From Candidatus Omnitrophota bacterium (GTDB taxonomy: Bacteria > Omnitrophota > Gorgyraeia > Zapsychrales > JANLHA01), in NCBI GenBank assembly GCA_963662715.1, contig OY759724.1, positions 2,458,662-2,522,661 of the forward strand: a stretch of DNA of 64,000 nt, in the 5' to 3' direction. Positions 41,566 through 62,813 of this stretch are shown piece by piece (the first letter of the stretch is position 1; the number at the start of each line of letters is the position of its first letter). The translations under genes were made by a program, and so were the position numbers. Under the pieces are notes generated by a model. That model was not told the DNA's origin, did no database searches, and saw only the letters and a program-made list of their open reading frames with translations.

Positions 41566-41571
41566 AGCTTT

Positions 41572-44605: not shown

Positions 44606-44989
44606 ATGAAAGTATGTGATATCTGTAACAGCAGTAGCCATCGTGGTACAATCGTGAAAGCACAAGACATGGGCAACGCAGCCCGGCAGGGTTTCGATCC
44701 GTACACTAGTGGACGTCTCTCCGCGGATAATACTGCGCTCAATACAACGGTGAGTAAAATACTAAAGGAGCAGGGTATGTCTGAGGCACAGATACGTTCT
44801 TATATTGCCAATATGCCTAAGCCTGCTTCACCTGAACACTGGAAGCAATCGGCGATTAGTGGGAGCTTGTCCCAGTCTGATTGGTACATCTGTGATATAT
44901 GCATGGTTAAATTGAAGCCTTTCTTAGGAGACAATGCAAATGAGCATAAAGCGCCAGCTTTACGAAAATGGTGGCAATTTTGGCGCTGA
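44606..44989 (+). CDS. hypothetical small protein with two CxxC pairs (zinc-ribbon-like)
   Basis: CDIC near the N-terminus and CDIC near the C-terminus. AGGAG RBS upstream. Confidence 0.4.
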   Translation: MKVCDICNSSSHRGTIVKAQDMGNAARQGFDPYTSGRLSADNTALNTTVSKILKEQGMSEAQIRSYIANMPKPASPEHWKQSAISGSLSQSDWYICDICMVKLKPFLGDNANEHKAPALRKWWQFWR

Positions 44990-44992
44990 TAA

Positions 44993-45292
44993 ATGACTAG
45001 AAGAGTGTCTGTGAAGAATATGGGTATTTATAAGCATACAGATTACAGCACGGAAGTGGAGAGGGCCATATTTGCACCTCGATTTTGTGAATATTGCGGC
45101 AAAGAATATTTAATCAAAGAAAGGTTGAAAACCCGAGGTGAAAGCAGAAGTTATGATCGAAAATATTCCAGCAGTCATGCTGGGGAAGCTTATATGAATG
45201 CCATGCAGGAAATGTATAAGTTCGCTAGGGATATGAAAATGAACTTGCGTCAGGTTTTAGTGGGTAAAGAAAAAATATTTCATAATAATTAA
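44993..45292 (+). CDS. hypothetical protein
   Basis: ORF lies immediately after the previous stop. One CEYC pair. Confidence 0.35.
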   Translation: MTRRVSVKNMGIYKHTDYSTEVERAIFAPRFCEYCGKEYLIKERLKTRGESRSYDRKYSSSHAGEAYMNAMQEMYKFARDMKMNLRQVLVGKEKIFHNN

Positions 45293-45412
45293 CGACAGTT
45301 TGTCGCGTACGTGCAAAATTTGTTTTGGGCATGTCATGATTTTTGCGTGGCTTCAACTGAGATTGATTAGTATTTTATGTCATGTCCATTGTGATTTTCC
45401 TTAAGGCTTCTT

Positions 45413-46493
45413 GTGAAAAAGGCTAAAATTAATACTTTCCGAATATCTGCATTTATTTCGATTGCATCTATTTTTTTTGCTGGGTGCGTATCTGTATCCA
45501 AGATTCATCAAGCAATTAGCGCTGATAACGCGGCAGAAGTCCGAAGAATTATTACTGATGATGAGAACGCTGTTAATGCAATTGATCAGCAAGGGAATAC
45601 TCCTTTGCATGTGGCATCGGTACGTGGTGATTCGGAAATAGTTGAGTTGCTTATCAAGAAGGGAGCCCTTATTGATGCTGTTAATACGGCTGGCCGTACT
45701 CCTTTGATGGCTGCCATTCTTTCAGGTAAGACATCTGTAGCCAACGTTCTAGTTGCAAAGGGAGCAAACGTAAATGCCAGAGATCGTCAAGGATGGACTC
45801 CGGTTCTTTTGGCAGCACAGGAAGGCACATATGAACTTTTAAAAATGCTTGTTGATGCCGGAGGAAATGTTTTTAATAAGAATAATGAGATGGTGACAGC
45901 TCTTCATGTCGCCAGCTTAAAAGGGAATGAGGAATTTGTCCATTTTTTTTATAGGAAAAGAAGTTAATGTCGATAGTGTCACGTTGCAAGGGCTTACTCC
46001 ATTACATTTTGCAGTTATGAATGATCATATTTCTGTTGCTGAAATATTAATAGAAAAAGGAGCAACACCAAAATTTGCTGCATCCAATGTTTATATCACA
46101 ATCAAGACCCATTTAATTTTTGCCGAATATTATAGGAAGTATTGGGATTGCGACAAGGCCGTTCATCATCTTTCTACGGCCATTAAATATCATGATGAAC
46201 ACAATGATTCTCAGAACATCGTGAAGTCTTTAACTGAGCTGAGGTTATGGAGATTGCAATGTTTAGCGCCTATTCTTTTTCCAATTGCTTACCTAGATGG
46301 ATGCATGTCTGGGCATATCCCTCAATTGGAGAATCAATGGGAGACAGAAATCCGGAATATTGAGGCTGAACAGCTGAAACTCGTAGATAGTATTGAAGAA
46401 ACTAGAAATAAACTTTTTTGTTATGAGCAATCAGATAAACGAAACGAGATTGAAGAATGTATGGGAGAGATAGATAATCCTCTCTTTCCTTAG
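45413..46493 (+). pseudogene. ankyrin-repeat lipoprotein gene interrupted by a frameshift in a T8 run (45943-45950)
   Basis: ORFs 45413..45967 and 45927..46493 together encode continuous ANK repeats (...GNEEFVHFF / IGKEVNVDSVTLQGLTPLHFAV...) if one T is removed. N-terminal lipoprotein signal FFAGC. Confidence 0.6.
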
Positions 46494-46679
46494 AACTAAC
46501 GTATTTCGTTAAAGTTAAAATAAATTAGTTTTTGTAAGGGGAGACGGTATCTGGTGTTTTTTGATTTAAGATTTTTAGACATGAGGGAAAGGGGATACAA
46601 AATGAATTTAAGCGAATTCAGACTCAGGGATATCATAATAAATGTGGAATCCTGTACGTTTTAAAATGAGGAGGTTGAA

Positions 46680-47012
46680 ATGATTGTATGGACTGGGAAA
46701 GGATTTGTGGTTTTTATATTCATTATGTTAGCCGTAATATGCTCGGAATATGTCTCAGAATTTTTGACAGGGGACGAACAGTTTTATGACCAAAATCCAT
46801 GGGTTCTTATGGTTGGAATGATGGTGGCTGCAGTGTGTATCTATGTATTTCATCGTTTCTACCTTCTTCGCGAAAAGTCAAAGATCGTCATAGATAAAGA
46901 AACTGGCGAGGAGCTTGATCTAAAAGAATCGCATTCGCTTTTTTTTATGCCCGTTAAGTGGTGGCCACTAATTATGATCTTTTTGGGATTCATCTGGTCA
47001 AGGTCACCGTAA
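46680..47012 (+). CDS. small membrane protein (three TM helices)
   Basis: Hydrophobic 110-aa ORF. GGAGG RBS. Confidence 0.4.
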   Translation: MIVWTGKGFVVFIFIMLAVICSEYVSEFLTGDEQFYDQNPWVLMVGMMVAAVCIYVFHRFYLLREKSKIVIDKETGEELDLKESHSLFFMPVKWWPLIMIFLGFIWSRSP

Positions 47013-47127
47013 TGCAGAAGACATTATCTTTATCCTTAAAATGAGATATAAAGAGGTAATCCTTATTCAAATTATAGGACAAGTATAAGATATGTATCTG
47101 CGAATACTTAGAGTAAAGGAGGCCTAT

Positions 47128-47766
47128 ATGAGGGAAAAAAGAGTGCTAGGAATTGTTTTTATTTTGGCAGTTAATTTAATGAGTAGCGGTTGCGGATTAT
47201 TGCCTAGAGCAAAATTAACACTAACTCCAGAACCAAATTCCATAGTTGTCGATTATTCAAAGAAATGCGGAAGAGTACAGGTCAATAAACCTGATCTAAG
47301 TCAAATGACTGAGTTTGATAGGAAAATGATATATGGATTTGCCAATGAATTAGAGAATAGCGGACTCTGTGAAGAAGTATTTTATCACACACTACCAGAA
47401 GGCCCGGTTGATCTGGCCCTTGATCTCAGCTTTGAAGCAACGCCTCACTTGTTTTGGGATGAAGAGAATGCTACAAATGAAGAATGGAAACAAATGAATA
47501 AACAAGTTCTTCCCAAGACTTTATTATTAACTTTGTCTTTAGGTATGATTCCTGCGCCTTATAATGAGGATTACTATTTAAAAGGCAAAGCTGTTATTTA
47601 TAAGAATAATAAAGAAAAAGGAGTAGTTGATGGTCAGTTCCATGCCCATTGGCACGGTACTGCAATGGGGATCATTGCTATTGAAGAAGAAACGAAAGAA
47701 GAATTCAAAAAGGTTTTATATAAACAATTAATTACAGGAATTACCGATTATTGTGAAAGTAAATGA
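47128..47766 (+). CDS. lipoprotein of unknown function
   Basis: MREKRVLGIVFILAVNLMSSGCG lipobox. AAGGAGG RBS precedes the ATG at 47128. Confidence 0.5.
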   Translation: MREKRVLGIVFILAVNLMSSGCGLLPRAKLTLTPEPNSIVVDYSKKCGRVQVNKPDLSQMTEFDRKMIYGFANELENSGLCEEVFYHTLPEGPVDLALDLSFEATPHLFWDEENATNEEWKQMNKQVLPKTLLLTLSLGMIPAPYNEDYYLKGKAVIYKNNKEKGVVDGQFHAHWHGTAMGIIAIEEETKEEFKKVLYKQLITGITDYCESK

Positions 47767-48212
47767 AAATATATGGTTTGCAGAAGAGAGGGTCGCCGGA
47801 TATGATTAATTCAACAAAAAGTCAGTTCATCTGTTTGTTTTTTTGTTTGTTTTTTCTTGGGTGCGGTTCGGTTCACAGTCAGTATATTTATGATGATTCT
47901 TACAAGGAGAATAGTCCGGTTAAGAGTGAGAAATGCTATGATGCGGCAGTGTTGTTGAATATTGATATGGAAAAGACTAAATACATATGTCGCAGATTTT
48001 TAATGGAGAAAGGCATTACTATTACTGCGGATACCGATATTTCTATAGAGGCTAGTCAAAAAAATGGACATATTGCAATTCAGTATGAAAAGGTTACAAA
48101 AGATTTAACATTTGTGACTGTGGGAACCGAGAAACAGGACTTTTGGGGTGGATTCTTGGATTCATGTGAAATCGTTGACGCTATTATAGAAAAGGCCAAT
48201 GGCTTAGAATGA
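47763..48212 (+). CDS. lipoprotein of unknown function
   Basis: FICLFFCLFFLGCGS lipobox. Start is ambiguous (47763 or 47802). Confidence 0.5.
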   Translation: MKIYGLQKRGSPDMINSTKSQFICLFFCLFFLGCGSVHSQYIYDDSYKENSPVKSEKCYDAAVLLNIDMEKTKYICRRFLMEKGITITADTDISIEASQKNGHIAIQYEKVTKDLTFVTVGTEKQDFWGGFLDSCEIVDAIIEKANGLE

Positions 48213-48445
48213 TCTAGAGTTAGTATCAGGAGTATTTCCTACATTATGCCTGTGGCGGCGTCTTAGTTCCCCAGGATGGGACACAAAGAATAGTTATTAA
48301 ACTTGACTATTCCCTGGCATCTTGTCACAAGGTAATTGATTAGTCTTCAATTCGTCCCGCCCAGGGGAGGTTTGTCCTATCTTGTACAATTGCTGAAGAA
48401 CTGATCGAAAAACTTACTTGGGAAAACAGCAAAACAGCTAATACC

Positions 48446-48874
48446 TTGCAGGGGTATTTGAACTATTTGTCCTACTATCCTGCAGGAAAATTTTCTCAGG
48501 AGGCACAAGCCCAGGTGAGCAAGCTTTCCAAGGAGGTCCTTGGCAAACGAACGTGCGTGTTGACTTCGGAACCGCAGCCGTTTCTAGAGTTTTATATGAT
48601 CGGGAATCCTTATGAGTCTGGGTTTGCGAATACAAAGATGGTGTCCAAAGGAGAGGTCAAGGACAGGGAACCACCTGAAGGTTTTATTTATGCCCTAGTC
48701 CGATGGGAAATTGAATCTAATAAAAATTTCAGTTTTAATAATTATGACCAAAACTTATATTTGGGAAAGGAGGAGCTGACGCGATATCTCCGGCCAATCG
48801 GCCTCCCTTCTAATATGAAGAATGGGCAGGAGGATACGATGTGGTGCGCTTTAAACAGCATTATCTCCATATAA
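48446..48874 (+). CDS. hypothetical protein, possibly 5'-truncated
   Basis: The only start is a TTG at 48446. The in-frame open region extends upstream to 48344 with no ATG or GTG. Confidence 0.3.
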   Translation: MQGYLNYLSYYPAGKFSQEAQAQVSKLSKEVLGKRTCVLTSEPQPFLEFYMIGNPYESGFANTKMVSKGEVKDREPPEGFIYALVRWEIESNKNFSFNNYDQNLYLGKEELTRYLRPIGLPSNMKNGQEDTMWCALNSIISI

Positions 48875-49285
48875 GTGTCAAAGTTAATGCCGGAGAACTA
48901 TTGATCTACGAGAGTTTATACGAGGTCCCGAAAGACGAAGTCAATCAATGCGAACTTGGTTTCTTGGGGAATAGTTTTGCCCTGAAAGAATTAATAAGAA
49001 ATAATGATGGTAAGTAAAAACAAAAACTTTGGCTACCTTATACCCATTTGTATAATAGGTTAAGAATATTATAAAGTGACAAATGATGGAATTTTTATGA
49101 ATTTATTGAATATTCAGCACTAGAGTTGTAATAACTGAATGCAAATTAAAATTTAAGAATAAAAACGTTTTCTTATCTTGGCCGAGAAGGTATTCGTTTT
49201 ATAACTGATTGTAATTATTAGAGATGTATACAAGCAAATAATGAATTGCGTGTTTATTGTAGGTGACAAAATGAAAGGAGAAGAC

Positions 49286-50311
49286 ATGTTTATTACTCAT
49301 TGCAGGAGGGCAAGCCGCTGCAAGTCAGTCGGAAAATTATTGGTCCTTGTGATGGTCTTGTTTTTGTCTGGATGTACGACATTGTATGAAGTTAAACCGA
49401 ATTTAGTTGCGAACTTCAAGCAATCGATCATTCCTAATGAGGATCAAACTCTAGTATATTTCATTCGAGGAAGTGCTTTTTCTGGTGGTGGCCGCAAGAT
49501 ATGGTTGGGGTGGAATGACCGAGCTATGGCGAGTTTGGCCTCGGGTACACATGCGTCTTTTTTGATGGATGCTGGCATTAATACAATTAATATCGTGGAA
49601 ACCAAAATGCCGCTTCTTTTTCATAAGTTGGATAATCGAGGAGGAGAAACAATATTCCTTTCGTATGAATATAAAAATGTCAAGATCGTAGAACTTGAAA
49701 GAGATCTTGGAATTTCAATGGTTATGCAAACGAAGGAAATACCAATCATTGAGCCACCGCGGAAAAATGATGGATATCCTTTGGATTTGCTTAACCCTGG
49801 ATTAGTTGATTTGTATTTGATGAAAACGACCGACAGGCAAAAAGAACCCAACGAAAATAAAGCGATAATAACTTTTATAAGACCCATAAAATATGCAGAG
49901 GGGGTAGCATTTGGAATTTGGGATGAGAATAGTTTTCTCGGGAGTTTAAAAGAACAGACCTATTTCCAGATCGCTGTTGATCCGGGTAAGCACACGTTTT
50001 TAGGTAAAGCTGAGCAGTGGTCAGTATTACAGGCAGAAGTCGAGGCCGGTAAGAAATACTACATCGAAGTTAAGGCTAAACTGGGAATGACAGTTGTGCG
50101 TATGCAATTATTGCCTTTAAAAGCCAAGATGTCTGGGGAAATGAAGAAATGGATGAATACTTCTCAGCTATTGACGTTAGATAAAAACGCCATCAACGAT
50201 GATGTGCAAGAGCGCCTGGATAAAGCATTGCCTTTAATACGATCAATTTTAGAGAAAGTAGCAAAAGGGGAACTGAAACCCAGATTTTTAAAGGTGTCAG
50301 ATGGAATATAA
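49286..50311 (+). CDS. lipoprotein with two internally repeated halves (DUF2846-like)
   Basis: LVLVMVLFLSGCTT lipobox. Repeated pattern FIRGSAFSGGGRKIWLGWND... and FIRPIKYAEGVAFGIWDE... Confidence 0.5.
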   Translation: MFITHCRRASRCKSVGKLLVLVMVLFLSGCTTLYEVKPNLVANFKQSIIPNEDQTLVYFIRGSAFSGGGRKIWLGWNDRAMASLASGTHASFLMDAGINTINIVETKMPLLFHKLDNRGGETIFLSYEYKNVKIVELERDLGISMVMQTKEIPIIEPPRKNDGYPLDLLNPGLVDLYLMKTTDRQKEPNENKAIITFIRPIKYAEGVAFGIWDENSFLGSLKEQTYFQIAVDPGKHTFLGKAEQWSVLQAEVEAGKKYYIEVKAKLGMTVVRMQLLPLKAKMSGEMKKWMNTSQLLTLDKNAINDDVQERLDKALPLIRSILEKVAKGELKPRFLKVSDGI

Positions 50312-50618
50312 GTTAGGTTTTCGTGTTTCTGTTCCCAAGATGTTTTCGATTAAATCAATCACAGCTTGAAGTTGTTGGGAAAAATATGCCTGTTTAACGT
50401 GATTGAAAGAAAGGAAAGCAAAGATGACACTTGCTAGAGAAGGGAAGGAATATAAAATTCATATCAACAAAATAAAATCTCAATTGGGGATCATGAGATA
50501 TAATAATCTTAATGGGACATAGTTTTTTTTGATCCAAATACTACGGAGAAGAAATGAACAATCACGTTTTTAAGAAAAACATATTAGATCGTATAGTGAA
50601 TTCTTAGAAGGAGGTTAT

Positions 50619-51839
50619 ATGTGGGAATGTCCTGATTGCAACACTACTAATTGGGATTCTGATTCAAAATGTCATCAATGTGGTTGCGACCTTTCTAATA
50701 AAGAAAAGTTAGCTAAAGTTTCTTCTCAGAAGATTAAAAGTCCTAGAGCGGATAAGCGTTCAAATTGGAAATATGCATTAGTCCATTTACTTTTAACCCC
50801 AGCGCTTTTTGTCTTAAGCATATTAATACTTAGTTTTCTTAGGGTTCCTGATGATGCATCTGTCTATTATTGTCTCTTGATTATCGGAGGCTATCCGATT
50901 GCGAAGCTTATCGGCTTTAATCCTATGTACATAGCCCTGCCGATATTTTGGCTCTATAGATATTCAGGCATGTATATATCATTTAAGGGAATGGCCTATA
51001 TTGTGTTCGTGCCTTCTTATGTATCAGTTCAAGTCCATACTCTGCTGTTGCTCATTCCAGATATGTATAAAAATTGCGTTTCTTGGCTCAAAGCTATAAA
51101 ATGGCCGCTTCGCATCCTAACTGTTCTCTCTACTATCGTCATTATTTTAGGTGCCATTTCCTGGATGACAAACTGGTTCCGCCAGGGATCTTTCGATTAT
51201 TATGCGAGTTCGTCTGGAGAGGACCGCATAAGATACGCTATCGCATACAAGCGGCTTGATTTGCTGAAGAAAAGTATTAGGCACGGCATGGAGTTGGAGG
51301 ACTATCTGATGTGGAAAGCCGGTTATCAGGAGAAAAACGAGAAAATTCTTGAATTTTTGATCAACAGCGGCCTGTCAGTGAATGCGGTAACCGGTTCAGG
51401 AGAAACAGCCCTTCATTCGGCAGCAGAAAGTGGAGAGGTAGAAAATATTCGGTTTCTAATAAGCCATGGTGCTGATCCTAACATTAGAGATGACGCAGGT
51501 CAGACGCCACTTCATCAAATAGTTCTTTCGGATTATATTCCAGATGAAAAGGTTGCTGAGATAATACAAATCCTAGTTGACGGTGGAGCAGATGTCAATG
51601 CTGTTACGAAACCGAACATTCATTCGGCTTACAAAAATTGGAGTGGAGGAGATATGCCTCTTCATTATGCGGTTAAGCAAAGAAAAAATTTTAAGAAAGA
51701 GCCCTATCCTCCAAAAGTTCGATCCGTTGCTACTCTTCTAGAACTGGGTGCTGACGTAAATGCCAAAAACAGCGATGGTCGTACGCCATTGGAGATTGCT
51801 ACTAATGAGGAAATTAAGAAAATTCTTTTGGAACATTAA
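50619..51839 (+). CDS. zinc-ribbon / multi-TM / ankyrin-repeat protein
   Basis: N-terminal CPDC...CHQCGC. Four or five TM helices. C-terminal ANK repeats (GETALHSAAESGEVENIRFLISHGADPNIRDDAGQTPLHQIV). Confidence 0.6.
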   Translation: MWECPDCNTTNWDSDSKCHQCGCDLSNKEKLAKVSSQKIKSPRADKRSNWKYALVHLLLTPALFVLSILILSFLRVPDDASVYYCLLIIGGYPIAKLIGFNPMYIALPIFWLYRYSGMYISFKGMAYIVFVPSYVSVQVHTLLLLIPDMYKNCVSWLKAIKWPLRILTVLSTIVIILGAISWMTNWFRQGSFDYYASSSGEDRIRYAIAYKRLDLLKKSIRHGMELEDYLMWKAGYQEKNEKILEFLINSGLSVNAVTGSGETALHSAAESGEVENIRFLISHGADPNIRDDAGQTPLHQIVLSDYIPDEKVAEIIQILVDGGADVNAVTKPNIHSAYKNWSGGDMPLHYAVKQRKNFKKEPYPPKVRSVATLLELGADVNAKNSDGRTPLEIATNEEIKKILLEH

Positions 51840-52228
51840 GGATTCATAGGATAAAAATATTAGAAGCATAAAAAATTAGGAAGAGATATTAATATGAAGC
51901 ATCATCTATTAGCAGATAAATGGATCTTGTTCAATAACGCGGGTGCAAAGCCAGAGATTATTGCTAAAAAACAGAATGAGCATATAGATGTGCTTGATTC
52001 TGATTTATTTGCTAAAATTATGAAGGAATCAGGAGCTGAAATATGAAGAAACGGATGTCGATATTAGATAAAGCGGAAATTGCCATGAAAAAGGCCGTTG
52101 AAAGAGTCATAGCAGAACATAAACGGTCTGGCAGACCTTTAGAGGTATGGAAAGACGGCAGAGTGAAAAAAATCATTGTTAAATAAAAAAGATTCTACGT
52201 CTATCCAGTTGCAAAATTCATTTACTAG

Positions 52229-52458
52229 GGGGAGCCATATAAAAAGGGACGCCTTTTAGGCGTCCCTTTTTATATGCTTGCTCTGCGTAACGAGATACCC
52301 AGAGAGCGAAGCGAGCGGTTCTGACCGAGCCCGCCAACATGCGAAGCGTTCAAGAGGGCGAGGAAATGGTGGCGAGTTGGAACGAGCCACCAGAGTCCTC
52401 GCGACCGAGCATGGCGAGGGAGTGCCAACAGTCAGAGGACTGTGGCCGGGGGAGTTAT
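52229..52458 (+). repeat. GC-rich direct repeat, copy A (~230 bp), begins with a bidirectional hairpin
   Basis: About 99% identical to 54526..54754 (two substitutions and one indel seen by eye). Starts GGGGAGCCATATAAAAAGGGACGCCTTTTAGGCGTCCCTTTTT. Confidence 0.75.
52241..52271. terminator. bidirectional intrinsic-terminator-like hairpin (A-run, GGGACGCC/GGCGTCCC stem, T-run)
   Basis: AAAAAGGGACGCCTTTTAGGCGTCCCTTTTT. An identical copy lies at 54538..54568. Confidence 0.5.
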
Positions 52459-52467
52459 ATAACATAA

Positions 52468-52501
52468 CCCGTTGTGAACAAGTTGTTTGCAACGGGTTTT
52501 T
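52468..52501 (+). terminator. rho-independent terminator at the end of repeat copy A
   Basis: CCCGTTG...CAACGGG stem followed by T8. Confidence 0.5.
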
Positions 52502-52510
52502 TTTGCTTGT

Positions 52511-52539
52511 TTGACGATTTTAAGGGTATGTGATAGACT
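52511..52539 (+). promoter_or_regulatory. sigma70-like promoter for the leu leader (TTGACG, 17-nt spacer, TAGACT)
   Basis: -35 at 52511-52516 and -10 at 52534-52539, about 25 nt upstream of the leader ORF. Confidence 0.4.
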
Positions 52540-52563
52540 TATACCACTATGCAAGATTATTCA

Positions 52564-52614
52564 ATGAAGTTAAACAACCTACTTCTCGGACTACTCCTAT
52601 CTTTATTGAGATAG
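52564..52614 (+). CDS. leucine-rich leader peptide MKLNNLLLGLLLSLLR (attenuation leader)
   Basis: 16 codons, 8 of them Leu. Lies between the promoter and a terminator hairpin directly upstream of leuA. Confidence 0.6.
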   Translation: MKLNNLLLGLLLSLLR

Positions 52615-52671
52615 GCCGTGAGAAGAGGTGTGTTTATTCATTGAATAAAAAATAAATAATTAAAAAATGAA

Positions 52672-52708
52672 GCCACCGCTTCTTAATGAGGCAGGTGGCC
52701 TTTTTTTT
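52672..52708 (+). terminator. attenuator terminator upstream of leuA
   Basis: GCCACC...GGTGGC stem followed by T8. An alternative pairing with downstream GTCGACCACCT is possible, which would act as an anti-terminator. Confidence 0.5.
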
Positions 52709-52767
52709 GAATAGTCGACCACCTTAATCTTTAGGAAGTAGTGGTGTCAAAAGAAAGGTGGTGTATT

Positions 52768-54438
52768 ATGAAAAAAGTTGAAATGCCATTCAAGCGTTAT
52801 CGCCCATATCCGCAAGTAAATCTTTTTGACCGCGAATGGCCAAATAAGACAATCGTAAAAGCTCCGATTTGGTGCAGTATTGACCTGAGGGATGGTAATC
52901 AGGCTTTGAGCAACCCAATGAATGTTGATGAAAAAATAATAATGTTTGAGCTTCTTGTAGAAATCGGATTTAAGGAAATTGAAGTTGGTTTTCCTTCTGC
53001 GTCTGATGTTGAATATCAGTTTATCAGGAGACTTATCGAAGAAGAACGAATACCTGATGATGTTACGATTCAAGTGCTGACACAAGCCCGTGAACATTTA
53101 ATAAGAAGAACTTTTGATTCCGTGCGGGACGCCCAAAAAGCAATCATTCACTTATATAATTCCACTTCAACAGTGCAAAGGGAAATTGTCTTTAGAAAAA
53201 ATAAAGAGGAAATAAAAAGTATTGCCATAAACGGAACAAAGTTAATAAAGGAATTAACTGATGCAGAAAAGAATGATGGCATACGCTTTGAGTACACACC
53301 TGAAAGTTTCCCAGGGACAGAGTTGGATTATGCCTTGGAAGTTTGCTCTGCGGTAATGGATGTGTGGGGTCCATCACCTGACAATAAAATAATCATAAAT
53401 TTGCCAACAACTGTTGAGATGTCAACGCCCAATATTTACGCTGACCGCATTGAATGGTTCTCTCGTCATATTAATAAAAGAGAATCAGTTATTATCAGCG
53501 TACATACTCATAACGACAGAGGAACAGGTGTGGCTTCTGCCGAATTAGCTGTTATGGCAGGAGCTGAGCGTGTCGAAGGAGCTTTATTCGGCAATGGGGA
53601 GAGAAGTGGCAATATGGATATTGTCACAATGGCTTTAAACCTTTTTAGCCAAGGGGTAAATCCTGAGCTTGATTTCTCGGACATCAATAGAATTGCGGAT
53701 ATTTACAAAAAATGTACAAGAATGGATATTCATCCTCGACATCCCTATGTAGGAGAGTTGGTCTATACTGCTTTCTCTGGGTCACATCAAGATGCAATTA
53801 ACAAAGGAATGAAAAAACAACGAGAAAATGAAAGCAATATTTGGGATGTGCCATATCTTCCCATTGACCCCAAGGATGTTGGTCGGACTTATGAGGCCAT
53901 TATCCGTATAAATAGTCAATCTGGGAAAGGCGGTGTTGCTTTTGTTTTAGAGAACGATTGGGATTTTAAGATACCCAAAGAGATGCAACCTGAATTTGCT
54001 CAGGTTATACAGCGGATGACAGAGAGTGTTAATAGCGAGTTATCATCGCAAGAAATAAAGAATTGTTTTGAAAAGGAATATATAAAAAGGACAGGACAAT
54101 TTCAATTAAAATCTTGTGCCATTCATTCTGAAAATGAAAACTCTAAAGAAACTATTGTCTGTGCTTTAATAAAAAATGAGCAACAAGAAATAACAATTCG
54201 TTCAAAAGGAAATGGTCCTGTTGATGCTTTTGTTTGCGGCACCAAGAGACATTTCAACATTATTTTCGATGTGGCATATTATTCTGAACATTCCCTTTCG
54301 CAAGGAGCCGATGCAGAAGCTGTTGCTTACATCGGGATAAAAACTGGCGAAAGCAAAATTGTCTTTGGAGTTGGGATTGATGCAAATATTAGCATAGCTT
54401 CAATTAAAGCGATTGTGAGTGCTATAAATCGTATGTAA
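52768..54438 (+). CDS. leuA: 2-isopropylmalate synthase (long LeuA form with a C-terminal regulatory domain)
   Basis: DLRDGNQ, HTHNDRGTGVA and LFGNGERSGN catalytic motifs. About 556 aa. AT-rich relative to its flanks. Start set at the ATG at 52768 (RBS AAAGGTGG). Confidence 0.85.
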   Translation: MKKVEMPFKRYRPYPQVNLFDREWPNKTIVKAPIWCSIDLRDGNQALSNPMNVDEKIIMFELLVEIGFKEIEVGFPSASDVEYQFIRRLIEEERIPDDVTIQVLTQAREHLIRRTFDSVRDAQKAIIHLYNSTSTVQREIVFRKNKEEIKSIAINGTKLIKELTDAEKNDGIRFEYTPESFPGTELDYALEVCSAVMDVWGPSPDNKIIINLPTTVEMSTPNIYADRIEWFSRHINKRESVIISVHTHNDRGTGVASAELAVMAGAERVEGALFGNGERSGNMDIVTMALNLFSQGVNPELDFSDINRIADIYKKCTRMDIHPRHPYVGELVYTAFSGSHQDAINKGMKKQRENESNIWDVPYLPIDPKDVGRTYEAIIRINSQSGKGGVAFVLENDWDFKIPKEMQPEFAQVIQRMTESVNSELSSQEIKNCFEKEYIKRTGQFQLKSCAIHSENENSKETIVCALIKNEQQEITIRSKGNGPVDAFVCGTKRHFNIIFDVAYYSEHSLSQGADAEAVAYIGIKTGESKIVFGVGIDANISIASIKAIVSAINRM

Positions 54439-54525
54439 CCGCAAAGTCATTGGATAATTTTCTGACTTTGTCTGAGAGACAGTAAGCCCTAAACTCCTCC
54501 AAAAAGTTGCGAAACGCGTCCTCTT

Positions 54526-54754
54526 GGGGAGCCATATAAAAAGGGACGCCTTTTAGGCGTCCCTTTTTATATGCTTGCTCTGTGTAACGAGATACCCAGA
54601 GAGCGAAGCGAGCGGTTCTGCCCGAGCCCGCCAACATGCGAAGCGTTCAAGAGGGCGAGGAAATGGTGGCGAGTTGGAACGAGCCACCAGAGTCCTCGCG
54701 ACCGAGCATGGCGAGGGAGTGCCAACAGTCAGAGGACTGTGGCCGGGGGAGTTA
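54526..54754 (+). repeat. GC-rich direct repeat, copy B
   Basis: Near-identical to 52229..52458. Offset 2297 bp. Confidence 0.75.
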
Positions 54755-54809
54755 ATATCCTAAGCCGTTGTGAGATAATGTCTTGAACATTCAAATATGT
54801 GCGATTTGA

Positions 54810-55592
54810 CTAAACGTCAGGTTTCCAAAATCTCACCACTGAAGCCTGGCAGAAGAAATCGAGCTGTTCCATAAAAAGAAATTTGGAATTAAGAAACCAA
54901 AGTGGCATTAAGATAGGTAAGGTCATGATACGGATTTTTCCGGAATGTTTCTTCACAAAGGTCCGCAGTTTTTTCCGCTTCGGGTAAGCATTGCCATTTT
55001 CGTCATATAGTTTCGGCGTGAAAAGTGAAATATTAAAATGAGGGAAGCAAATATCTGCTTTAAACCCATATTTCTTTCCAAATAAAGCAAGCCCGGTCGG
55101 AGTGGGGTTGTTGATATGCCCGGGAGCTATGCTTTCTACAAAATCATATTTACAAGTCGAAGATACCCAGAAAAGTCCGTTAGGTTTAAGGACACGGAAA
55201 GCTTCACTGAAGATATTTTTATTGATATTTTGAGGAACATGCTCATAAACATTATGGCACATAATGAAATCAATGGATGTGTCTTCAATAGGAAGGGGGT
55301 CTTTGAGGTTATGCACACGGCTGTCAATCCCGAGGTTTGCTTTTGACCATTCAACGGCACTCTTTGCCCCTTCCAAAGCAATAACATGCAGGCCGTTTTC
55401 CTGGCAGCATTTCGTGAAGAACCCTTCCCCGGCGCCCAGGTCAAGTCCAGATGCGGAATGTCCGACGTATTTGATGACTTTCTCGACAAGGGCTTGATAT
55501 GTTTTCCAGCGGTCAGTAGACCAGCCTTTTATCCTCTGTTCATAATGATCGTCATTTACAATGCCGTCTGCCTGGGCATGGTTGGTTTGCAT
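54810..55592 (-). CDS. class I SAM-dependent methyltransferase
   Basis: LDLGAGEGFF motif I, then motif II/III spacing (IDFIMCHNVYEHV, LKPNGLFWVSS). Confidence 0.7.
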   Translation of the reverse strand: MQTNHAQADGIVNDDHYEQRIKGWSTDRWKTYQALVEKVIKYVGHSASGLDLGAGEGFFTKCCQENGLHVIALEGAKSAVEWSKANLGIDSRVHNLKDPLPIEDTSIDFIMCHNVYEHVPQNINKNIFSEAFRVLKPNGLFWVSSTCKYDFVESIAPGHINNPTPTGLALFGKKYGFKADICFPHFNISLFTPKLYDENGNAYPKRKKLRTFVKKHSGKIRIMTLPILMPLWFLNSKFLFMEQLDFFCQASVVRFWKPDV

Positions 55593-56399: not shown

Positions 56400-56448
56400 A
56401 GATTTTGCTAGAAAAATAAGTGTGCAGAAGAAAGGAAGAAAGAAGAAA

Positions 56449-56490
56449 GTGCCAGTCCCCTCAAAGGGACAGGTCGAATGAATTGAAAAA
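56449..56490 (+). repeat. short GC-rich motif GCCAGTCCCC(T/C)CAAAGGGACAGG(T/G)CGAA(T/C)GAATTGA (same motif at 62745-62790)
   Basis: Two near-identical 40-bp copies, plus a related one at 59192-59225. Each lies just downstream of a stop codon. Confidence 0.45.
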
Positions 56491-56632
56491 TAATTAGAAG
56501 GACAGTAGACGTTTTAGATATAGAATTGTGATATAGATATTCCACTATTCCTCCCCCAGTTGCAAAATTCATCCACCAGGGGGAGCCATTTAGAAATATC
56601 CAGCGCACCATTTTGCGACTGGTTAACAATCT

Positions 56633-56672: not shown

Positions 56673-56724
56673 ATCGCGAAAAAACCACGGCCATGAGGCC
56701 GTGGATGAAGTGTAATGACCCTAG

Positions 56725-57516
56725 TTAAGCAAGGATTTTTTTGTGTAGATCGAGTTCTTTGTTAATCCATCTTTTGTAAAACTCTTCAGGCGTAGCGAAG
56801 AATAATGCCTGATGAGGGAAATCGGTGTTGTAATCGTTGATCCAACGCTTGAAGTCATCTTGAAGATCAAATGGGTTGTCCCATTCATTGATCCAAATGA
56901 AATCTTCTTTGATTCTGCGGATGACGCGTTCGGTGTCAGCATTGCCTTTGGGGTTGGACCAGGTTGAGAAGATCTGCTTGATGCCGGCCAGTGAACAATT
57001 AAGCCTGAAGCGCCCGCTGGTGGGCTGACAGCCATTGTCCGAGATCAGGTGCAGGTCATGATTCAGTGTGTCTTTGATGCCGTTTGGGAATCGGTTGTTG
57101 ATGGCCATTTCCAGGGCATCCAGCCAGTCATCAGTCTTTGACTGGATGTTGAGGCTATAGCCGATAATTTCTTTGGTATACCAGTCTAGGACGATGGTCA
57201 GATAGAACCAGCCCCAGGTCGCCAGTTTGATTTTTGTCATATCGATACCCCAGAATTGATTGGGGTGAGAAGCTCGTGGTTTCCGGCGGAGGTTGCCACG
57301 CTTGGCCTTCAAGCGATCGTTGGGTTGAACCGTTAATTGATTTTCTTGCATGAGGCGTTGGACACAATTTTTGCCAATTTTGTAATGTTTACGGTTGTTT
57401 AAATAGGCCCAGACTGAACGGTATCCCCAGAGGGGATGTTGCTTTTTAATTTGTCGGATTTTGACTAAATGTTTTTGGTCTTGTTCGATACGCTTTAGAG
57501 AACGGCGTCTTTTCAT
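56725..57516 (-). CDS. IS3-family transposase OrfB (DDE integrase core)
   Basis: WGIDMTKI...LDWYTKEIIGYSL and ...DNGCQPTS contain the DDE residues. Confidence 0.8.
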   Translation of the reverse strand: MKRRRSLKRIEQDQKHLVKIRQIKKQHPLWGYRSVWAYLNNRKHYKIGKNCVQRLMQENQLTVQPNDRLKAKRGNLRRKPRASHPNQFWGIDMTKIKLATWGWFYLTIVLDWYTKEIIGYSLNIQSKTDDWLDALEMAINNRFPNGIKDTLNHDLHLISDNGCQPTSGRFRLNCSLAGIKQIFSTWSNPKGNADTERVIRRIKEDFIWINEWDNPFDLQDDFKRWINDYNTDFPHQALFFATPEEFYKRWINKELDLHKKILA

Positions 57517-57818
57517 AACTCGTACTCGTTTTTTTTTAGTTCAACGGTCAAGTCGCCGATGATGCGTTTGAGTTTGGCGTTTTCTTTTTCAAGACGTTGC
57601 TCTTTCTGGGACTGTTGTTTGATGTCAAAGGCCATATGGCATTCTTTGAGGAACTGGTCGCGCCATTTGTAATATTGGGTTTGGCCAATTTGGTATTTGT
57701 TACAAAGTTTACTGATGTCGATTTTCCCGCTGAGGCCTTCAAGCACGATTTGGGTCTTTTGTTGGCTGGTCCATTGGCGTTTTTTCATGGGAATTGGGCT
57801 CCTTTCCTTGGAACTCAA
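57513..57818 (-). CDS. IS3-family transposase OrfA (HTH)
   Basis: 101 aa. KLCNKYQIGQTQYYKWRDQFLK HTH. Leucine-zipper tail. Confidence 0.75.
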   Translation of the reverse strand: MSSKERSPIPMKKRQWTSQQKTQIVLEGLSGKIDISKLCNKYQIGQTQYYKWRDQFLKECHMAFDIKQQSQKEQRLEKENAKLKRIIGDLTVELKKNEYEL

Positions 57819-57903
57819 TTCTACACCATTTGTTTAAATTTGTTAACTAGGGTCACTATAGAAGCGTTTCCGAGGTCTTGGTTGCGTATGATACAATGGG
57901 TGC

Positions 57904-58332
57904 ATGAGATATTTGAAGCAAGGACACACAGTTTACTATGCCAGATACCATATTGTCATTTGTACAAGATATAGGCGAAAGATATTGCGATGGGGTTCGG
58001 CGGAGTATGTCAAAAGATGCGTTTTGGGAGTGATGAGACGGTATCCTGAGATCATCATTGAAAAAGTAAATACAGATTTAGATCATATGCATCTTTTGGC
58101 ATCAATTCCGCCGAAGATGGCTGTAAGTCATGCAGTAAATCTGATTAAGAGTAACACAGCAAAGCTGATGAGGCGGCGATATAAGTTTTTAGACAAGATG
58201 TATGTGAAAAAGGCAGGGATATGGTCAGCAGGGTATTTTGTGTCAACGGTTGGAGCCGACGAAGAATCGATAAAGCGATACATCGAATATCAAGGCCGGG
58301 AAGACCGAGGACAAACGCAGATAGAATTTTAG
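57904..58332 (+). CDS. tnpA: IS200/IS605-family Y1 (HUH) transposase TnpA
   Basis: 142 aa. YHIVICTRYRRKIL. HUH motif DHMHLL. Catalytic Tyr in SAGYFVSTVG. Confidence 0.85.
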   Translation: MRYLKQGHTVYYARYHIVICTRYRRKILRWGSAEYVKRCVLGVMRRYPEIIIEKVNTDLDHMHLLASIPPKMAVSHAVNLIKSNTAKLMRRRYKFLDKMYVKKAGIWSAGYFVSTVGADEESIKRYIEYQGREDRGQTQIEF

Positions 58333-58534
58333 CTGCGTTTGCACAGTCAAAATAGTTAAGAAACCACGGCCGTGAGGCCGTGGAGTTTCATTTAACGGGA
58401 AAGATATAAATATTGAGGTAGTACATAAAACTATAAATAGCAAAATATTATGATAAAACGACACGGCGCTGTACTTAGCTTCCTCGTATGTTATATTAAA
58501 ATAAAGAGCGGCGTAATATGAGTACGGGAGTATT

Positions 58535-59134: not shown

Positions 59135-59184
59135 GTAAATAAAGTAGGTGCCAAATTAGGTCACAGGGTGCTGGCAGAAAGGAA

Positions 59185-59350
59185 GGGGCCAGTCCCCAAA
59201 AGAGTGGAGGGGCCGAAGTTCTGCCCGAACCCGCCAACACGCGAAGCATTCAAACGGGCGAGGAAAAGGTGGCGAGCGACCGAGGACGAAATGTCCGAGG
59301 AAGTGCCGAAATCTCCGCGTTTCGGCCCAGAGCGAACAACCAGAGTCCTC
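59185..59350 (+). repeat. diverged copy C of the GC-rich repeat family
   Basis: Shares the core GTTCTGCCCGAACCCGCCAACACGCGAAGCATTCAAACGGGCGAGGAAAAGGTGGCGAG with copies A and B. Preceded by the GGCCAGTCCCCAAAAG motif. Confidence 0.5.
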
Positions 59351-59460: not shown

Positions 59461-61206
59461 ATGGTCTTTCAATGGGAGGAGCGATCTGTCTTTCCTTTGA
59501 GCCGTTTCATCCTGAGTAAATGTGCGAACATGAACTGTGTCATTTTCCAACCCCACGTTAGTGCATCCCGCTGGTTTAATAAAATCGTGATTCTTGTCAT
59601 ATCTTTCTGCCTCGGTGGCTGTGCAAGCTTTCCCTTGCATACAGCGATCCGTCAGCAGGACCGAAACCGGGCTAAAGAGTTAATCAACCGGAAAAGAGGG
59701 CTTAATGACTTCAACGAGCAAGGGCTTTTGCCGATTCATTTGGCGGCAAAAGCAGATGAGGTCGAATTGGTCAAGGTCATGCTGAACGCTGGTGTAGACA
59801 TTGACGCGCGCGCTAATGATCTGGCAAAAAACGTAACCCCCTTATTTGAAGCGACGGCGGCCGGGCATACACGGATGATAGAGTTCCTGCTCAAAAATGG
59901 GGCCATTCCTGACCTGGCAACAAGCGATGGCTTGACACCAGTCATGCGTGCCGCACAAGACGGTAATATCAGTGCCCTCCAGGTTCTCTGCAGAAATAAG
60001 GCCGATCTTGATCTGCAGTTACCCAATGGGTATACGTCATTGATGCTTGCCATACAGCACCGGCATTCACGGTGTATCCAAGAGCTTCTTGAAAACGGCG
60101 CTGATCCTGACATTTTGAATGCTGACGGCAGATCAGCTTTGTGGCTTAGTATAAAAGAAGATGAAAGTGATGTTGTTGAAATGTTGGCAAAGAACAAAGT
60201 GGATATAAACAGTATTAATAGTGGGATGGTCCCGCTTATACAGGCGTTTTCAGATGGAAACATAAAAATAGTAGAAACATTGATCAGGCTCGGGGCGGAT
60301 GTCAATGTGCAAAGCAGTGAAGGGTGGACTCCACTGGGATGGGCGGCGCTGAATGGAAAACCACGCTTGGTTGAATTATTGCTGCAACACGGCGCAGACA
60401 TCGATGGCGCGGATATTTCCGGTCAAACTCCGCTGTATCTGGCGGCAATACAGAATAATGCCGAAGTGGTTCTTATCTTGGTCGAAAACGGAGCGGACAT
60501 TAAGGCAAAGACGGATGAAAATACGACGGTTTTACACGCAGCTGCTCTGGGGGAACATCCGGATATGATTGATTTCTTTTTGAGGCTAGGACTACGCCCT
60601 CAAGTGGTTACTGGCGGGGCTGAAGATGCCTATGCAACGGCTTTGGCATATAAGCGTTATGGGCAATTAAATCTGAAAAATGGTGATACTGCCGGGGGCA
60701 GGGAAGCGTATGAAACGGCAGCTGAACAATTTTCACTCGCGGCCGGGAAGTATTCCGAACTGATTCAGGAGTATGCCCAAAAAATTCAATCAAAAAAGAT
60801 GAAAGAATTTTTGGCAAAAACGGCCCTTGTTCTGGCCCAGGGGGTTGTCTATGCAGCTCAGTCGTACCAGGCTGCAAGCAATTACAAAAGTTATTCTGAG
60901 GTAGCCGCTTTAAAACAGGCATCGTCAAACGGATCTGGCGTATCCGGATATTATAGTGCCTTAAATGCCTACCGGGAGGCCTATGTCCCGGTGTCCCATA
61001 CGACGGGAGGTTTCCCATCTACCATTAAGTCAGGGACCGGCGATATAAGACTGTTCACTGCTGCAAAAAACAGGTGCAACCTGCGGGCCGTAACAAGTGC
61101 CGGCTATGCACAAGAATGTTTAAGGGCCACGGAATGCTTTGCCGGAAACGATATGGCAACAGAAATTCTGGAGTGTATTCAACACGCGGAAAGAAAAAAT
61201 CTTTGA
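59461..61206 (+). CDS. large ankyrin-repeat lipoprotein (about 10 ANK repeats plus a C-terminal helical domain)
   Basis: Lipobox ISFCLGGCAS. Repeats such as GLLPIHLAAKADEVELVKVMLNAGVDIDAR. The start could be the ATG at 59530. Confidence 0.7.
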   Translation: MVFQWEERSVFPLSRFILSKCANMNCVIFQPHVSASRWFNKIVILVISFCLGGCASFPLHTAIRQQDRNRAKELINRKRGLNDFNEQGLLPIHLAAKADEVELVKVMLNAGVDIDARANDLAKNVTPLFEATAAGHTRMIEFLLKNGAIPDLATSDGLTPVMRAAQDGNISALQVLCRNKADLDLQLPNGYTSLMLAIQHRHSRCIQELLENGADPDILNADGRSALWLSIKEDESDVVEMLAKNKVDINSINSGMVPLIQAFSDGNIKIVETLIRLGADVNVQSSEGWTPLGWAALNGKPRLVELLLQHGADIDGADISGQTPLYLAAIQNNAEVVLILVENGADIKAKTDENTTVLHAAALGEHPDMIDFFLRLGLRPQVVTGGAEDAYATALAYKRYGQLNLKNGDTAGGREAYETAAEQFSLAAGKYSELIQEYAQKIQSKKMKEFLAKTALVLAQGVVYAAQSYQAASNYKSYSEVAALKQASSNGSGVSGYYSALNAYREAYVPVSHTTGGFPSTIKSGTGDIRLFTAAKNRCNLRAVTSAGYAQECLRATECFAGNDMATEILECIQHAERKNL

Positions 61207-61220
61207 AAGGGGGGAGTAAA

Positions 61221-62120
61221 ATGAATTTTTCGCATCTGCGAAACGCTCTTGTGGTTTTGGGGGTGATTTTATTGAGCGGGTGTGCCGGTGCTTTGCACAC
61301 GGCTGCCAAGCAAAATGACGTGCCCCGGGCTAAAATGTTAATCGAGAGCGGCGTTCAGGTTGACTGCCGGGCAAAGTGGAAAAATGAAACTCCTTTACAA
61401 ATGGCGGCGGAAGCGGGGAATACAGAGGTAGTGAAATTCCTGATAGATGCTGGAGCTGACGTAAATGCGGGAGGATACAATAATTTTACCGTCTTGCACA
61501 GTGCCATTACCAGCGGAAACGAAGATGTCGTCCGTCTGCTCCTAGAAAATGGCGCCAATGTCAACGCGGTTACCGATGAGGAGTATGCTCCGATTCATCA
61601 TGCGGCCTATCATGGCAATGCAAACATTATACGCTTGTTGATCAATTATGGTGCTGATCTTACACTGAAAGACAGGTGGATTAATAATATGACCCCTTAT
61701 GAACTGGCATCTGTCAGGAACCATGATAGCGTCGTTCTTAATCTTTTAAGGATTGAAGATCAGAAGGCTTCTGCTGCATCTGCCGGGATGGATGTCAACC
61801 CAGAGTCTATAGCCTCAGAGATGTCTGAGAAAAAATATGCGGTGGATGAACGCCGTCCGTATGTCGTTCTTGCGGCTGAAAGGGGACAGTACAAAGTTTT
61901 GCAGGGGCTTATTGAAAATGGCGTCGATGTGAATACAGTCTTACCCGACGGCTCTACCGCTTTGATGCTTGCGGCGAAGAGAGGTCATGATGATATCGTG
62001 AAATTGCTCCTGCGACATGGCGCTGATGTCAACGTTGAGCGTAATGATGGAGAGAATGCCATGTCTCTGGCGGCAAGTGAGGAGATTCGAGAAATCTTAA
62101 GAAGTTTTGGTGCTCAATAA
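61221..62120 (+). CDS. ankyrin-repeat lipoprotein
   Basis: MNFSHLRNALVVLGVILLSGCAG lipobox. Eight or more ANK repeats. GGGGGAG RBS. Confidence 0.7.
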   Translation: MNFSHLRNALVVLGVILLSGCAGALHTAAKQNDVPRAKMLIESGVQVDCRAKWKNETPLQMAAEAGNTEVVKFLIDAGADVNAGGYNNFTVLHSAITSGNEDVVRLLLENGANVNAVTDEEYAPIHHAAYHGNANIIRLLINYGADLTLKDRWINNMTPYELASVRNHDSVVLNLLRIEDQKASAASAGMDVNPESIASEMSEKKYAVDERRPYVVLAAERGQYKVLQGLIENGVDVNTVLPDGSTALMLAAKRGHDDIVKLLLRHGADVNVERNDGENAMSLAASEEIREILRSFGAQ

Positions 62121-62724: not shown

Positions 62725-62813
62725 AAATGAAGGGGCGAAATGAAGGGGCCAGTCCCCCAAAAGGGACAGGGCGAACGAATTGAGAAATAGATAGAAAGAC
62801 AGCTACTTATTTC

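Follow-up and report, generated by a model that had tools for sequence, protein, structure and literature searches.

How a complete gene for leucine biosynthesis came to stand alone between two nearly identical direct repeats is the question raised by a stretch of Candidatus Omnitrophota DNA of 64,000 nucleotides (contig OY759724.1, positions 2,458,662 to 2,522,661; hereafter the window). The gene, leuA, has its own promoter and leader and lies downstream of a tRNA-Asn gene, between repeat copies X1 (52229-52457, + strand) and X2 (54526-54754, + strand) of 229 nt each. Our overall reading, to which we assign a probability of roughly 60%, is that an ordinary leucine-regulated leuA was acquired as captured foreign DNA within an island inserted at the tRNA-Asn gene. 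The findings join two known things, a leucine attenuator and a tRNA-linked island carrying a captured neighbour gene.

The leuA product and its leucine attenuator

The leuA open reading frame (ORF) is intact. It runs on the + strand from an ATG at 52768 to a stop codon ending at 54438 and encodes 556 amino acids, in 100% identity with a database protein of the same length (P0001). Neither the 30 largest ORFs of 1-40 kb nor the ORFs scanned with Pfam or NCBIfam in 40-62 kb included any other leu gene or any ilv gene. A previous reading of the window made without database searches (the sequence-only reading) was therefore right in describing the gene as full-length and alone. It had also proposed that a stand-alone enzyme of this family might serve citramalate- or homocitrate-type chemistry, and on this point the profile searches gave the opposite answer. 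LeuA scored 760.8 bits with the long-form model TIGR00970 (leuA_yeast, NCBIfam), above the equivalog cut-off of 697.4, and 874.7 bits with PRK03739 (cut-off 455). The scores were far below the cut-offs for NifV (TIGR02660, 103.4 versus 462.9 bits), CimA (TIGR00977, 81.9 versus 450 bits), and the Leptospira model of CimA (34.9 versus 950 bits). The protein consists of an HMGL-like TIM barrel (PF00682, residues 33-311), the post-catalytic subdomain IPMS_D2 (PF22615, residues 330-395), and the C-terminal LeuA_dimer domain for dimerisation and allosteric, leucine-binding regulation (PF08502, residues 424-555), all assigned by Pfam. The 2-isopropylmalate synthase (IPMS) of Mycobacterium tuberculosis (PDB 1SR9) aligned with it from end to end (E = 1e-177). 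The two enzymes share the three-domain layout and the motifs DLRDGNQ, HTHNDRG (HxHNDRG), and SGSHQD, the residues of which presumably have the catalytic roles assigned to them in 1SR9. LeuA differs from 1SR9 in lacking the mycobacterial N-terminal extension and the repeat insertion of the regulatory domain (556 versus 644 residues).

The nearest relatives of LeuA are proteins of Candidatus Omnitrophota (85-74% identity), followed by those of Chlorobiaceae (about 62%); a scan of metagenome proteins revealed no relative above 66%. DnaX, a product of the window's core portion, likewise assigns the host to Omnitrophota. In every close relative with a readable contig, leuA is solitary and surrounded by unrelated genes, and the orthologues with 74-85% identity are the stand-alone leuA genes of their own genomes, in ordinary chromosomal contexts. 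In this clade, a solitary leuA under leader control is the rule, and not the unusual arrangement that it had first appeared to be. Since the solitary state is normal, it does not point to non-canonical chemistry. Location in an accessory island and the lack of a leuBCD gene in the window might still suggest a specialised paralogue, of the citramalate, homocitrate, or methylthioalkylmalate synthase type, acting in a non-canonical pathway. We consider this very improbable: the score of the protein is above the IPMS equivalog cut-off and far short of those of CimA and NifV, the leucine-binding regulatory domain is retained, the attenuator described below is specific for leucine, and the orthologues occupy ordinary chromosomal positions. 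Judged from its sequence, the leuA product is very probably a canonical long-form 2-isopropylmalate synthase, the transcription of which is set by a leader-peptide attenuator. A gene for tRNA-Leu(CAA) is found on the opposite strand about 30 nt 3' of leuA in the Omnitrophota relatives L013 and L014 (6696-6781), and about 2 kb downstream of leuA in the relative L002.

A sigma-70-like promoter, TTGACG-17 nt-(TG)TAGACT, is present at 52511-52539 (+ strand), the -35 box of which is conserved in relatives. It is followed by a leader ORF of 16 codons, MKLNNLLLGLLLSLLR (52564-52614, + strand). The sequence-only reading had recognised both elements; it had counted eight Leu codons in the leader, and there are nine. 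The leader may also be longer. An in-frame ATG five codons upstream (window 52534-52551) is conserved at equivalent positions in L001, L002, L005, L006, and L008, and initiation at this ATG (52549) would give a leader of 21 codons, MQDYSMKLNNLLLGLLLSLLR (52549-52614, + strand), also with nine Leu codons. This upstream ATG is located only 7-9 nt past the -10 box (9 nt in the window), so the 21-codon leader may be translated from a nearly leaderless mRNA devoid of a 5' untranslated region. The leader peptide, xxYSMKLNSLLLGLLLSLLR, is conserved in relatives with synonymous changes. When all fetched homologous loci were considered, counting distinct loci only, 113 of 141 had a small ATG-started ORF with a run of Leu codons in the 360 nt preceding the leuA homologue, as opposed to 9 of 144 in the downstream control. 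The start of leuA itself was also considered: a GTG at 52741 was rejected, given that conservation was seen for AAAGGTGG-N6-ATG but not for the upstream frame.

A folding energy of -61 kcal/mol was calculated for the leader region, far below that of shuffled sequences (z = -9.3). Three helices were identified in the attenuator RNA (52557-52708, + strand). The Leu codons are contained in the 1:2 hairpin (52557-52648), an antiterminator can form instead by pairing of region 2 (52619-52630) with region 3 (52673-52685), and the 3:4 terminator consists of an 11-bp stem (52672-52699, -18.8 kcal/mol) followed by T8 (U8 in the RNA), the hairpin and T tract having been noticed in the sequence-only reading. 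Conservation was analysed in an alignment of 12 sequences, comprising the window and 11 relatives. The 1:2 hairpin, the 2:3 duplex, and the terminator were present in 12 of 12 sequences, with energies of -12.6 to -18.2 kcal/mol for the antiterminator and of -15 to -23 kcal/mol for the terminator. Pairing was retained in 99.2% of the alignment cells for the terminator (3 compensatory pairs), in 86.5% for the 1:2 helix (11 compensatory pairs), and in 90.9% for the antiterminator (1 compensatory pair), the latter value falling to 43-74% when the register was slid. On the basis of these three mutually exclusive, conserved helices, the leader qualifies as a classical leader-peptide leucine attenuator, in keeping with the earlier assignment.

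Scarcity of Leu-tRNA would stall the ribosome at the nine Leu codons, thereby freeing region 2 for pairing with region 3 and preventing formation of the terminator. With leucine in ample supply, transcription would stop, as the 1:2 hairpin would form and with it the 3:4 terminator. Such leucine-responsive switching is what the conserved structure predicts. One result speaks against it: the minimum-free-energy structure retained the terminator when the Leu codons were masked. Antitermination would therefore have to be kinetic, as in other attenuators.

Leader attenuators of leu operons are known or comparatively predicted in Proteobacteria, the enterobacterial leader constituting the Rfam family RF00512. 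The leader of the window shares with them a Leu-codon ORF, an intrinsic terminator preceding the gene, and mutually exclusive 1:2, 2:3, and 3:4 helices. It is nonetheless distinct in peptide and in sequence, which are specific to a clade of Omnitrophota; a related leader with a Leu run exists in Chlorobiaceae. At the Rfam gathering score, only tRNAs were matched in the window, and Leu_leader (RF00512) was not. At E <= 10, the leader gave chance-level matches only, with Thr_leader and Phe_leader (13.7 and 15.5 bits versus 55). Thus, a conserved Leu leader and terminator are documented here for the solitary long-form leuA of Omnitrophota, which no Rfam family covers.

Leader ORFs with Leu codons upstream of a stand-alone leuA are also known in Actinobacteria, and the LEU element found there has been described as a pseudoknot sequestering the Shine-Dalgarno sequence (PMC1262725). 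The actinobacterial leaders and that of the window both control a solitary long-form leuA, although the latter leader has a classical terminator in place of the pseudoknot. A search for a helix sequestering the Shine-Dalgarno sequence between the terminator and leuA gave no consensus structure.

A probable tRNA-Asn island and a probably foreign leuA block

The tRNA-Asn(GTT) gene of the window (40653-40728, + strand), detected by ARAGORN and Rfam, is the proposed integration target. Evidence for integration was provided by the locus L174, which is syntenic with the window for Tex, MscS, yfcH, dnaX, recR, and tRNA-Asn. The tRNA-Asn genes of the two loci are 100% identical up to GGGGGAG (...CCTCGCGGGGGAG) and then diverge. 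In L174, the tRNA gene is followed by TTAATATCTTAAGCCGTTGTGAGCTAAT... (TTAATATCTTAAGCCGTTGTGAG...) and a terminator hairpin. In the window, it is followed by unrelated low-GC DNA, and the trailer known from L174 is found directly past X2, as GGGGGAG-TTAATATCCTAAGCCGTTGTGAGATAAT. This remnant of the native trailer, TTAATATCCTAAGCCGTTGTGAGATAAT... (54752-54790, + strand), is 88% identical over 33 nt to the post-tRNA sequence of L174. The empty site in L174 and the presence of its trailer after X2 therefore mark 40726-54744 as DNA inserted at the 3' end of tRNA-Asn, a low-GC composite island of 14 kb relative to L174. The left core (attL, the left attachment site) would be the GGGGGAG at the end of the tRNA gene (40719-40725), and X2 would be the right end (attR), with its terminal core GGGGGAG at 54745-54751. 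Both breakpoints of the island are located at (C)GGGGGAG, and cores are also present at the internal boundaries at 52228, 52448, and 54526.

The composition of the island agrees with this delineation. Its GC content is about 38-41%, versus 47% elsewhere, and its genes have 31-40% GC at third codon positions, versus 53-63% in core genes. The DNA is AT-rich from 41 kb onward; the sequence-only reading had placed leuA in an AT-rich patch of the accessory region close to tRNA-Asn. Pfam domains of toxin-antitoxin systems, ParB-HTH, ankyrin, and DUF2846 were identified in its ORFs. An empty site, a direct repeat, of 7-8 nt, of the end of the tRNA gene at the distal boundary, and a deviant composition are thus found together. 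Inspection of the cores showed that the empty site of L174 (12538-12547) has a tRNA-Asn gene without encoded CCA, GGGGGAG being followed by TTA. At 40719-40728 of the window, the inserted DNA supplies GGGGGAG followed by CCA, and X1, X2, and the sequence at 56579 read GGGGAG-CCAT. An additional GGGGGAG (40834-40840) is present just past the tRNA-Asn terminator, 108 nt 3' of the tRNA core; the initial 108 nt of the island are bracketed by cores, as is X.

The leuA gene is atypical in the genome that carries it. The GC content at third codon positions (GC3) is 30.9% in leuA and 53-63% in core genes including ychF, pssA, purU, dnaX, and recR; values for other genes of the island range from 27 to 45%. 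In relatives, the GC3 of leuA fits the genome of residence (52% in L001, on a contig with 47% GC, and 30% in L002, on a contig with 38% GC). In addition, a block of 2.08 kb (52448-54532) is 78-82% identical to the low-GC metagenomic contigs L002 to L004, at similar levels in the comparison with L002 for the left non-coding (80%), coding (82%), and right non-coding (78%) portions. Identity to these contigs drops to background directly past both ends of the block, which are the inner edges of the repeats, and the left boundary of homology in L173 is at 52450. The unit is accordingly delimited as the sequence-only reading had suspected in proposing a recently duplicated or recombination-delimited cassette. 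The other half of that proposal, a simple recent duplication, does not account for copies of X that abut a core and a tRNA-Asn trailer.

Both edges of the block have features of a tRNA-Asn junction. At the 5' edge lies a donor-type tRNA-Asn trailer (52455-52508, + strand), complete with a terminator hairpin (52466-52498) and T8 that a scan for terminators detected. The trailer leads into the leuA promoter; it is 81% identical over 43 nt to the tRNA-Asn trailer of L174 and is conserved in L002 and L173. The architecture X1-core-trailer-leuA is the same as that of the X2-core-trailer junction. At the 3' edge, the sequence AGTTGCGAAACGCGTCCTCTTGGGGAG (54505-54531, + strand) is conserved in L002. 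Its final 14 nt, GTCCTCTTGGGGAG, also conserved in L002, resemble the 3' end of tRNA-Asn, GTCCTCGCGGGGGAG, and may constitute a pseudo-att site. Based on composition, homology, and the empty site, it is quite probable that leuA is foreign to this Omnitrophota genome and that the island was inserted at tRNA-Asn.

Of 121 related loci, 50 have a tRNA-Asn(GTT) gene upstream of the leuA homologue, at a distance of 85-2731 nt and, in 44 of them, on the same strand. These loci are mostly from Chlorobiaceae, within L018 to L146 (for example, L018, 4697-4769, and L043, 4821-4893). As judged from this distribution, the linkage between tRNA-Asn and leuA is old. Its variable spacing suggests repeated insertion at this site, which would make it a hotspot. 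Generic direct repeats flanking leuA were searched for in the relatives, and the longest common substrings did not exceed the shuffled expectation. In L005, a relative with 77% identity, leuA is flanked by GGGAGCCAAA at 991-1000 and 2979-2988, with a one-base overlap between the downstream copy and the leuA stop codon. The 8-mer GGGAGCCA is rare, being present 24 times in 1.48 Mb of related loci. No significance was reached in an unbiased repeat test, nor in the comparison of the L005 upstream region with tRNA-Asn (76 of 1000 shuffles), and the flanking repeat and this resemblance serve as leads only.

The flanking repeats and a proposed capture of leuA

X1 and X2 are 99% identical, with two mismatches, at 52285 (C/T) and 52324 (A/C), and the longest uninterrupted identity is 117 nt. 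The pair is beyond chance, since no match was obtained in shuffled sequences. The GC content of X is 58% overall, and the near-identical, GC-rich direct repeats that the sequence-only reading had reported are thus present. Similarity between the copies extends, at lower identity, about 22 nt past their end (16 of 19 positions in register, a score reached by 2 of 2000 shuffles). X1 consists, in order, of a core GGGGGAG (52228-52234), CCAT, a hairpin, a GC-rich body, and a second core GGGGGAG (52448-52454). The hairpin (52236-52276 in X1) has the form of a bidirectional terminator, with a perfect 19-bp stem and A5/T5 flanks, and one such hairpin opens each copy, as had been noted. The core of X1 is preceded by an arm, CCAGTTGCAAAATTCATTTACTAG (52205-52227, + strand), with related arms at 54505-54525, at 56556-56578, and in L174; the arm-plus-core pattern is CCAGTTGCRAAA-N12-GGGGGAG. 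Each X is bounded by GGGGGAG on both sides. This core occurs at 11 sites in the window, 8 of which are on the + strand between 40.7 and 56.6 kb.

Additional related elements were detected, making X one of a small family. X3 (59218-59350, + strand) is a third, diverged and rearranged, X body with 90% identity over 59 nt. The arm and core followed by CCATTTAGAAAT... recur in part at 56556-56610 (+ strand), with 88% identity to 52205-52245; the right half of this copy matches the sequence following tRNA-Asn (40726-40750) at 20 of 25 positions in register. This copy is likely to be the junction at which a further island unit starts, that unit ending in the degenerate X3. L174 contains an X-like element (69.5% identity over 128 nt) with the same left arm, 1.3 kb downstream of tRNA-Asn. 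X was absent from 91 related leuA loci. The X core pattern had no match in collections of genomes, metagenomes, and viral contigs, nor did the arm-plus-core pattern in viral contigs.

The hairpins of X might function as bidirectional terminators. X1 and the terminator of the trailer would then shield leuA from upstream transcription, and X2 would terminate both leuA and the convergent methyltransferase gene (54810-55592, - strand). Other identities were considered for X and rejected. Concerning a known RNA, X had no Rfam match at the gathering score or at E <= 10, the low folding energy of its two strands (z = -6.4 and -6.7) was largely owing to the hairpin, and inspection revealed no compensated helix shared by X1, X3, and the L174 copy. 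Concerning a decayed gene, the translated frames had no Pfam match, and searches of phages and plasmids gave no support; an exact 21-nt viral match in a Bro-N antirepressor gene (frame VLP-x10-GEEKVAS) was judged to be due to chance.

It might be asked whether the repeats are real, since a mis-joined or wrongly resolved repeat could produce such a pair, and, were the assembly built from long reads, sequencing errors might account for the two mismatches. An artefact of this type is most improbable because the copies differ at two positions, X3 sharing the X2 base at one of them, and because their four distinct flanks make sense as junctions and have independent homologues, namely L002 and L173 for the leuA edges, L174 for the trailer, and 56556-56589 for the left arm.

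How leuA was captured, and what X contributed, is the tentative part of our reading, to which we give somewhat less than even odds. An island ending in X would have resided in the tRNA-Asn gene of a low-GC Omnitrophota donor, with leuA as the next gene. The leuA gene, with its promoter and attenuator, would have been captured as flanking chromosome between two att-type sites, the X1 junction and GTCCTCTTGGGGAG, either by tandem accretion or by excision at an outer site, as for tandems of cis-mobilizable elements (CIMEs) and integrative and conjugative elements (ICEs). The composite would then have integrated site-specifically into the 3' end of tRNA-Asn in the present genome via the 7-nt core GGGGGAG. 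X2-core-trailer would thus be the junction made in the present genome, and X1-core-trailer-leuA a junction brought from the earlier low-GC host.

Decay of integrated elements into att-flanked units lacking an integrase, tandem accretion, and gene capture have been documented (PMC5704250; PMC3146451). The window resembles the ICESt1/CIME tandems (PMC5704250) and the ssrA islands of Dehalococcoides (PMC3146451) by the insertion at the 3' end of a small-RNA gene, the copies of this 3' end at distal and internal boundaries, the atypical composition, the tandem and integrase-less units, and the capture of neighbouring genes. It differs from them by a very short core (7-8 nt), by a main repeat that is a 229-nt GC-rich arm rather than a tRNA end, and by its cargo, namely a biosynthetic housekeeping gene that brings its own attenuator. 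Specialised transduction and aberrant excision likewise carry att-adjacent chromosome to a new host along with the element, except that phage genes are lacking here and that capture apparently occurred via a tRNA-like pseudo-site and not by illegitimate recombination.

Several observations weigh against this history or against the insertion itself. Pfam revealed no integrase, recombinase, or excisionase domain in the scanned ORFs between 40.7 and 56.6 kb, nor was any found in the 23 kb examined, and the island therefore fits at best the decayed, cis-mobilizable class. The shared core amounts to only 7-8 nt, the relative providing the empty site is distant (73% identity for DnaX), and the remnant of the native trailer ends after about 40 nt, beyond which more foreign-looking DNA follows. 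The arm and X-like body of L174 adjoin each other in what is otherwise ordinary chromosome, so that X may be an intergenic element present throughout the lineage and not the arm of an island. Finally, tandem donor elements, two later insertions of X, and Campbell-type integration through X fit the data alike.

The last of these routes belongs to an account based on homologous recombination, close to the idea put forward in the sequence-only reading, in which X is mere shared homology. A circle or fragment bearing leuA and one X would have entered a resident X by a single, Campbell-type crossover, or an X-leuA unit would have been duplicated in tandem before loss of the second leuA. Repeats of 229 nt with 99% identity and a 117-nt uninterrupted run are ample for RecA, and the sequence following X2 resembles the 5' edge of the leuA block (16 of 19 positions), as a product of the type X-M-X-M' would. 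This sequence is nevertheless nearer to the native trailer of L174 (88%) than to the leuA-block edge, and is therefore the flank of the target instead of a further leuA unit. Coincidence of the edges of X and of the leuA block with the GGGGGAG core of the tRNA junction is not expected from homologous recombination, which would also require a low-GC donor to carry an X with 58% GC. We regard this account as unlikely. Independently of their origin, the repeats appear long enough for RecA-mediated loss or amplification of leuA, as proposed in the sequence-only reading.

The two later insertions of X correspond to another account, which we hold to be more doubtful still. X would be a gene-less mobile mini-element of about 220 bp that was inserted in trans at GGGGGAG cores in tRNA-Asn-like contexts and landed twice in recent times, once on each side of a resident leuA segment. 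This would explain why X is bounded by a core on both sides, why the copies are 99% identical and their flanks only distantly alike, why L002 has the arm and core at the 3' edge of the leuA block without X, and why further copies exist (X3 and that of L174). It is countered by the structure of X, in which the repeat search found no inverted repeat between the ends and an internal hairpin only, by the lack of a known recombinase for X, and by L174, in which the arm and X are contiguous with no evident 3' core. The copies are also too few to show mobility. Terminal inverted repeats, by which, together with target-site duplications made by a transposase, miniature inverted-repeat transposable elements (MITEs) and composite transposons are recognised, were not found for X. 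As in units flanked by MITEs or insertion sequences (ISs), two near-identical, direct, short elements bracket a cargo gene; X differs by the absence of terminal inverted repeats and of an associated transposase, and by boundaries that are att-type cores.

A speculative extension, of the same low probability, is that X is an attP-like region (core, CCA, terminator, arm) moved in trans by a recombinase specific for tRNA-Asn. It is equally doubtful, though conceivable, that a pair of X copies, located at tRNA-like cores near each other, can mobilise the intervening chromosome. If so, X would be the counterpart, in the world of integrases, of a MITE-flanked composite transposon, and a housekeeping gene with its own regulation would time and again become exchangeable cargo by this mechanism. 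Such repeated mobilisation would be expected, if this holds, because the linkage between leuA and tRNA-Asn predates the split between Chlorobi and Omnitrophota.

Site-specific excision of the whole island would generate a circle with the junction ...GTGGCC-GGGGGAG-CCATTTACTAAC... and restore the site as tRNA-GGGGGAG-TTAATATCC. Circularisation of leuA alone would generate the junction GTCCTCTT-GGGGAG-TTATATAAC. On the reading that we favour, the locus, for which an empty site is available, would cleanly illustrate the transfer of a biosynthetic gene, complete with its own regulation, from one genome to another within an uncultured phylum. This bears on how readily prototrophy and auxotrophy change in bacteria that are often host-dependent, and X is a concrete candidate to follow in the complete Omnitrophota genomes that exist in number by now, such as the 176 of bioRxiv 10.64898/2026.06.07.730766.

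Other elements of the low-GC region

The left end of the island (40946-41565) contains an ORF for a HigB-like toxin, seemingly truncated (72 amino acids), beside an intact antidote gene of the HI1420 type. The low-GC region also contains a cluster of six ankyrin-repeat ORFs (42350-43756, 45413-46493, 50619-51839, and 59461-62120). A GC-rich repeat of 61 nt (GAARGKGCCAGTCCCC..AAAGGGACAGG..) was found after three genes of the + strand, at 56445-56505, 62742-62802, and 59177-59201; at the latter position, its first 25 nt are fused to X3. Finally, an IS3-family element (orfA, 57513-57818, and orfB, 56725-57516, - strand; terminal repeats TGACCCTAGTTAA) is inserted in an IS200-like element, the whole spanning 56679-58384. 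The IS200-like element comprises tnpA (57904-58332) and matching hairpins at 56679-56705 and 58358-58384.

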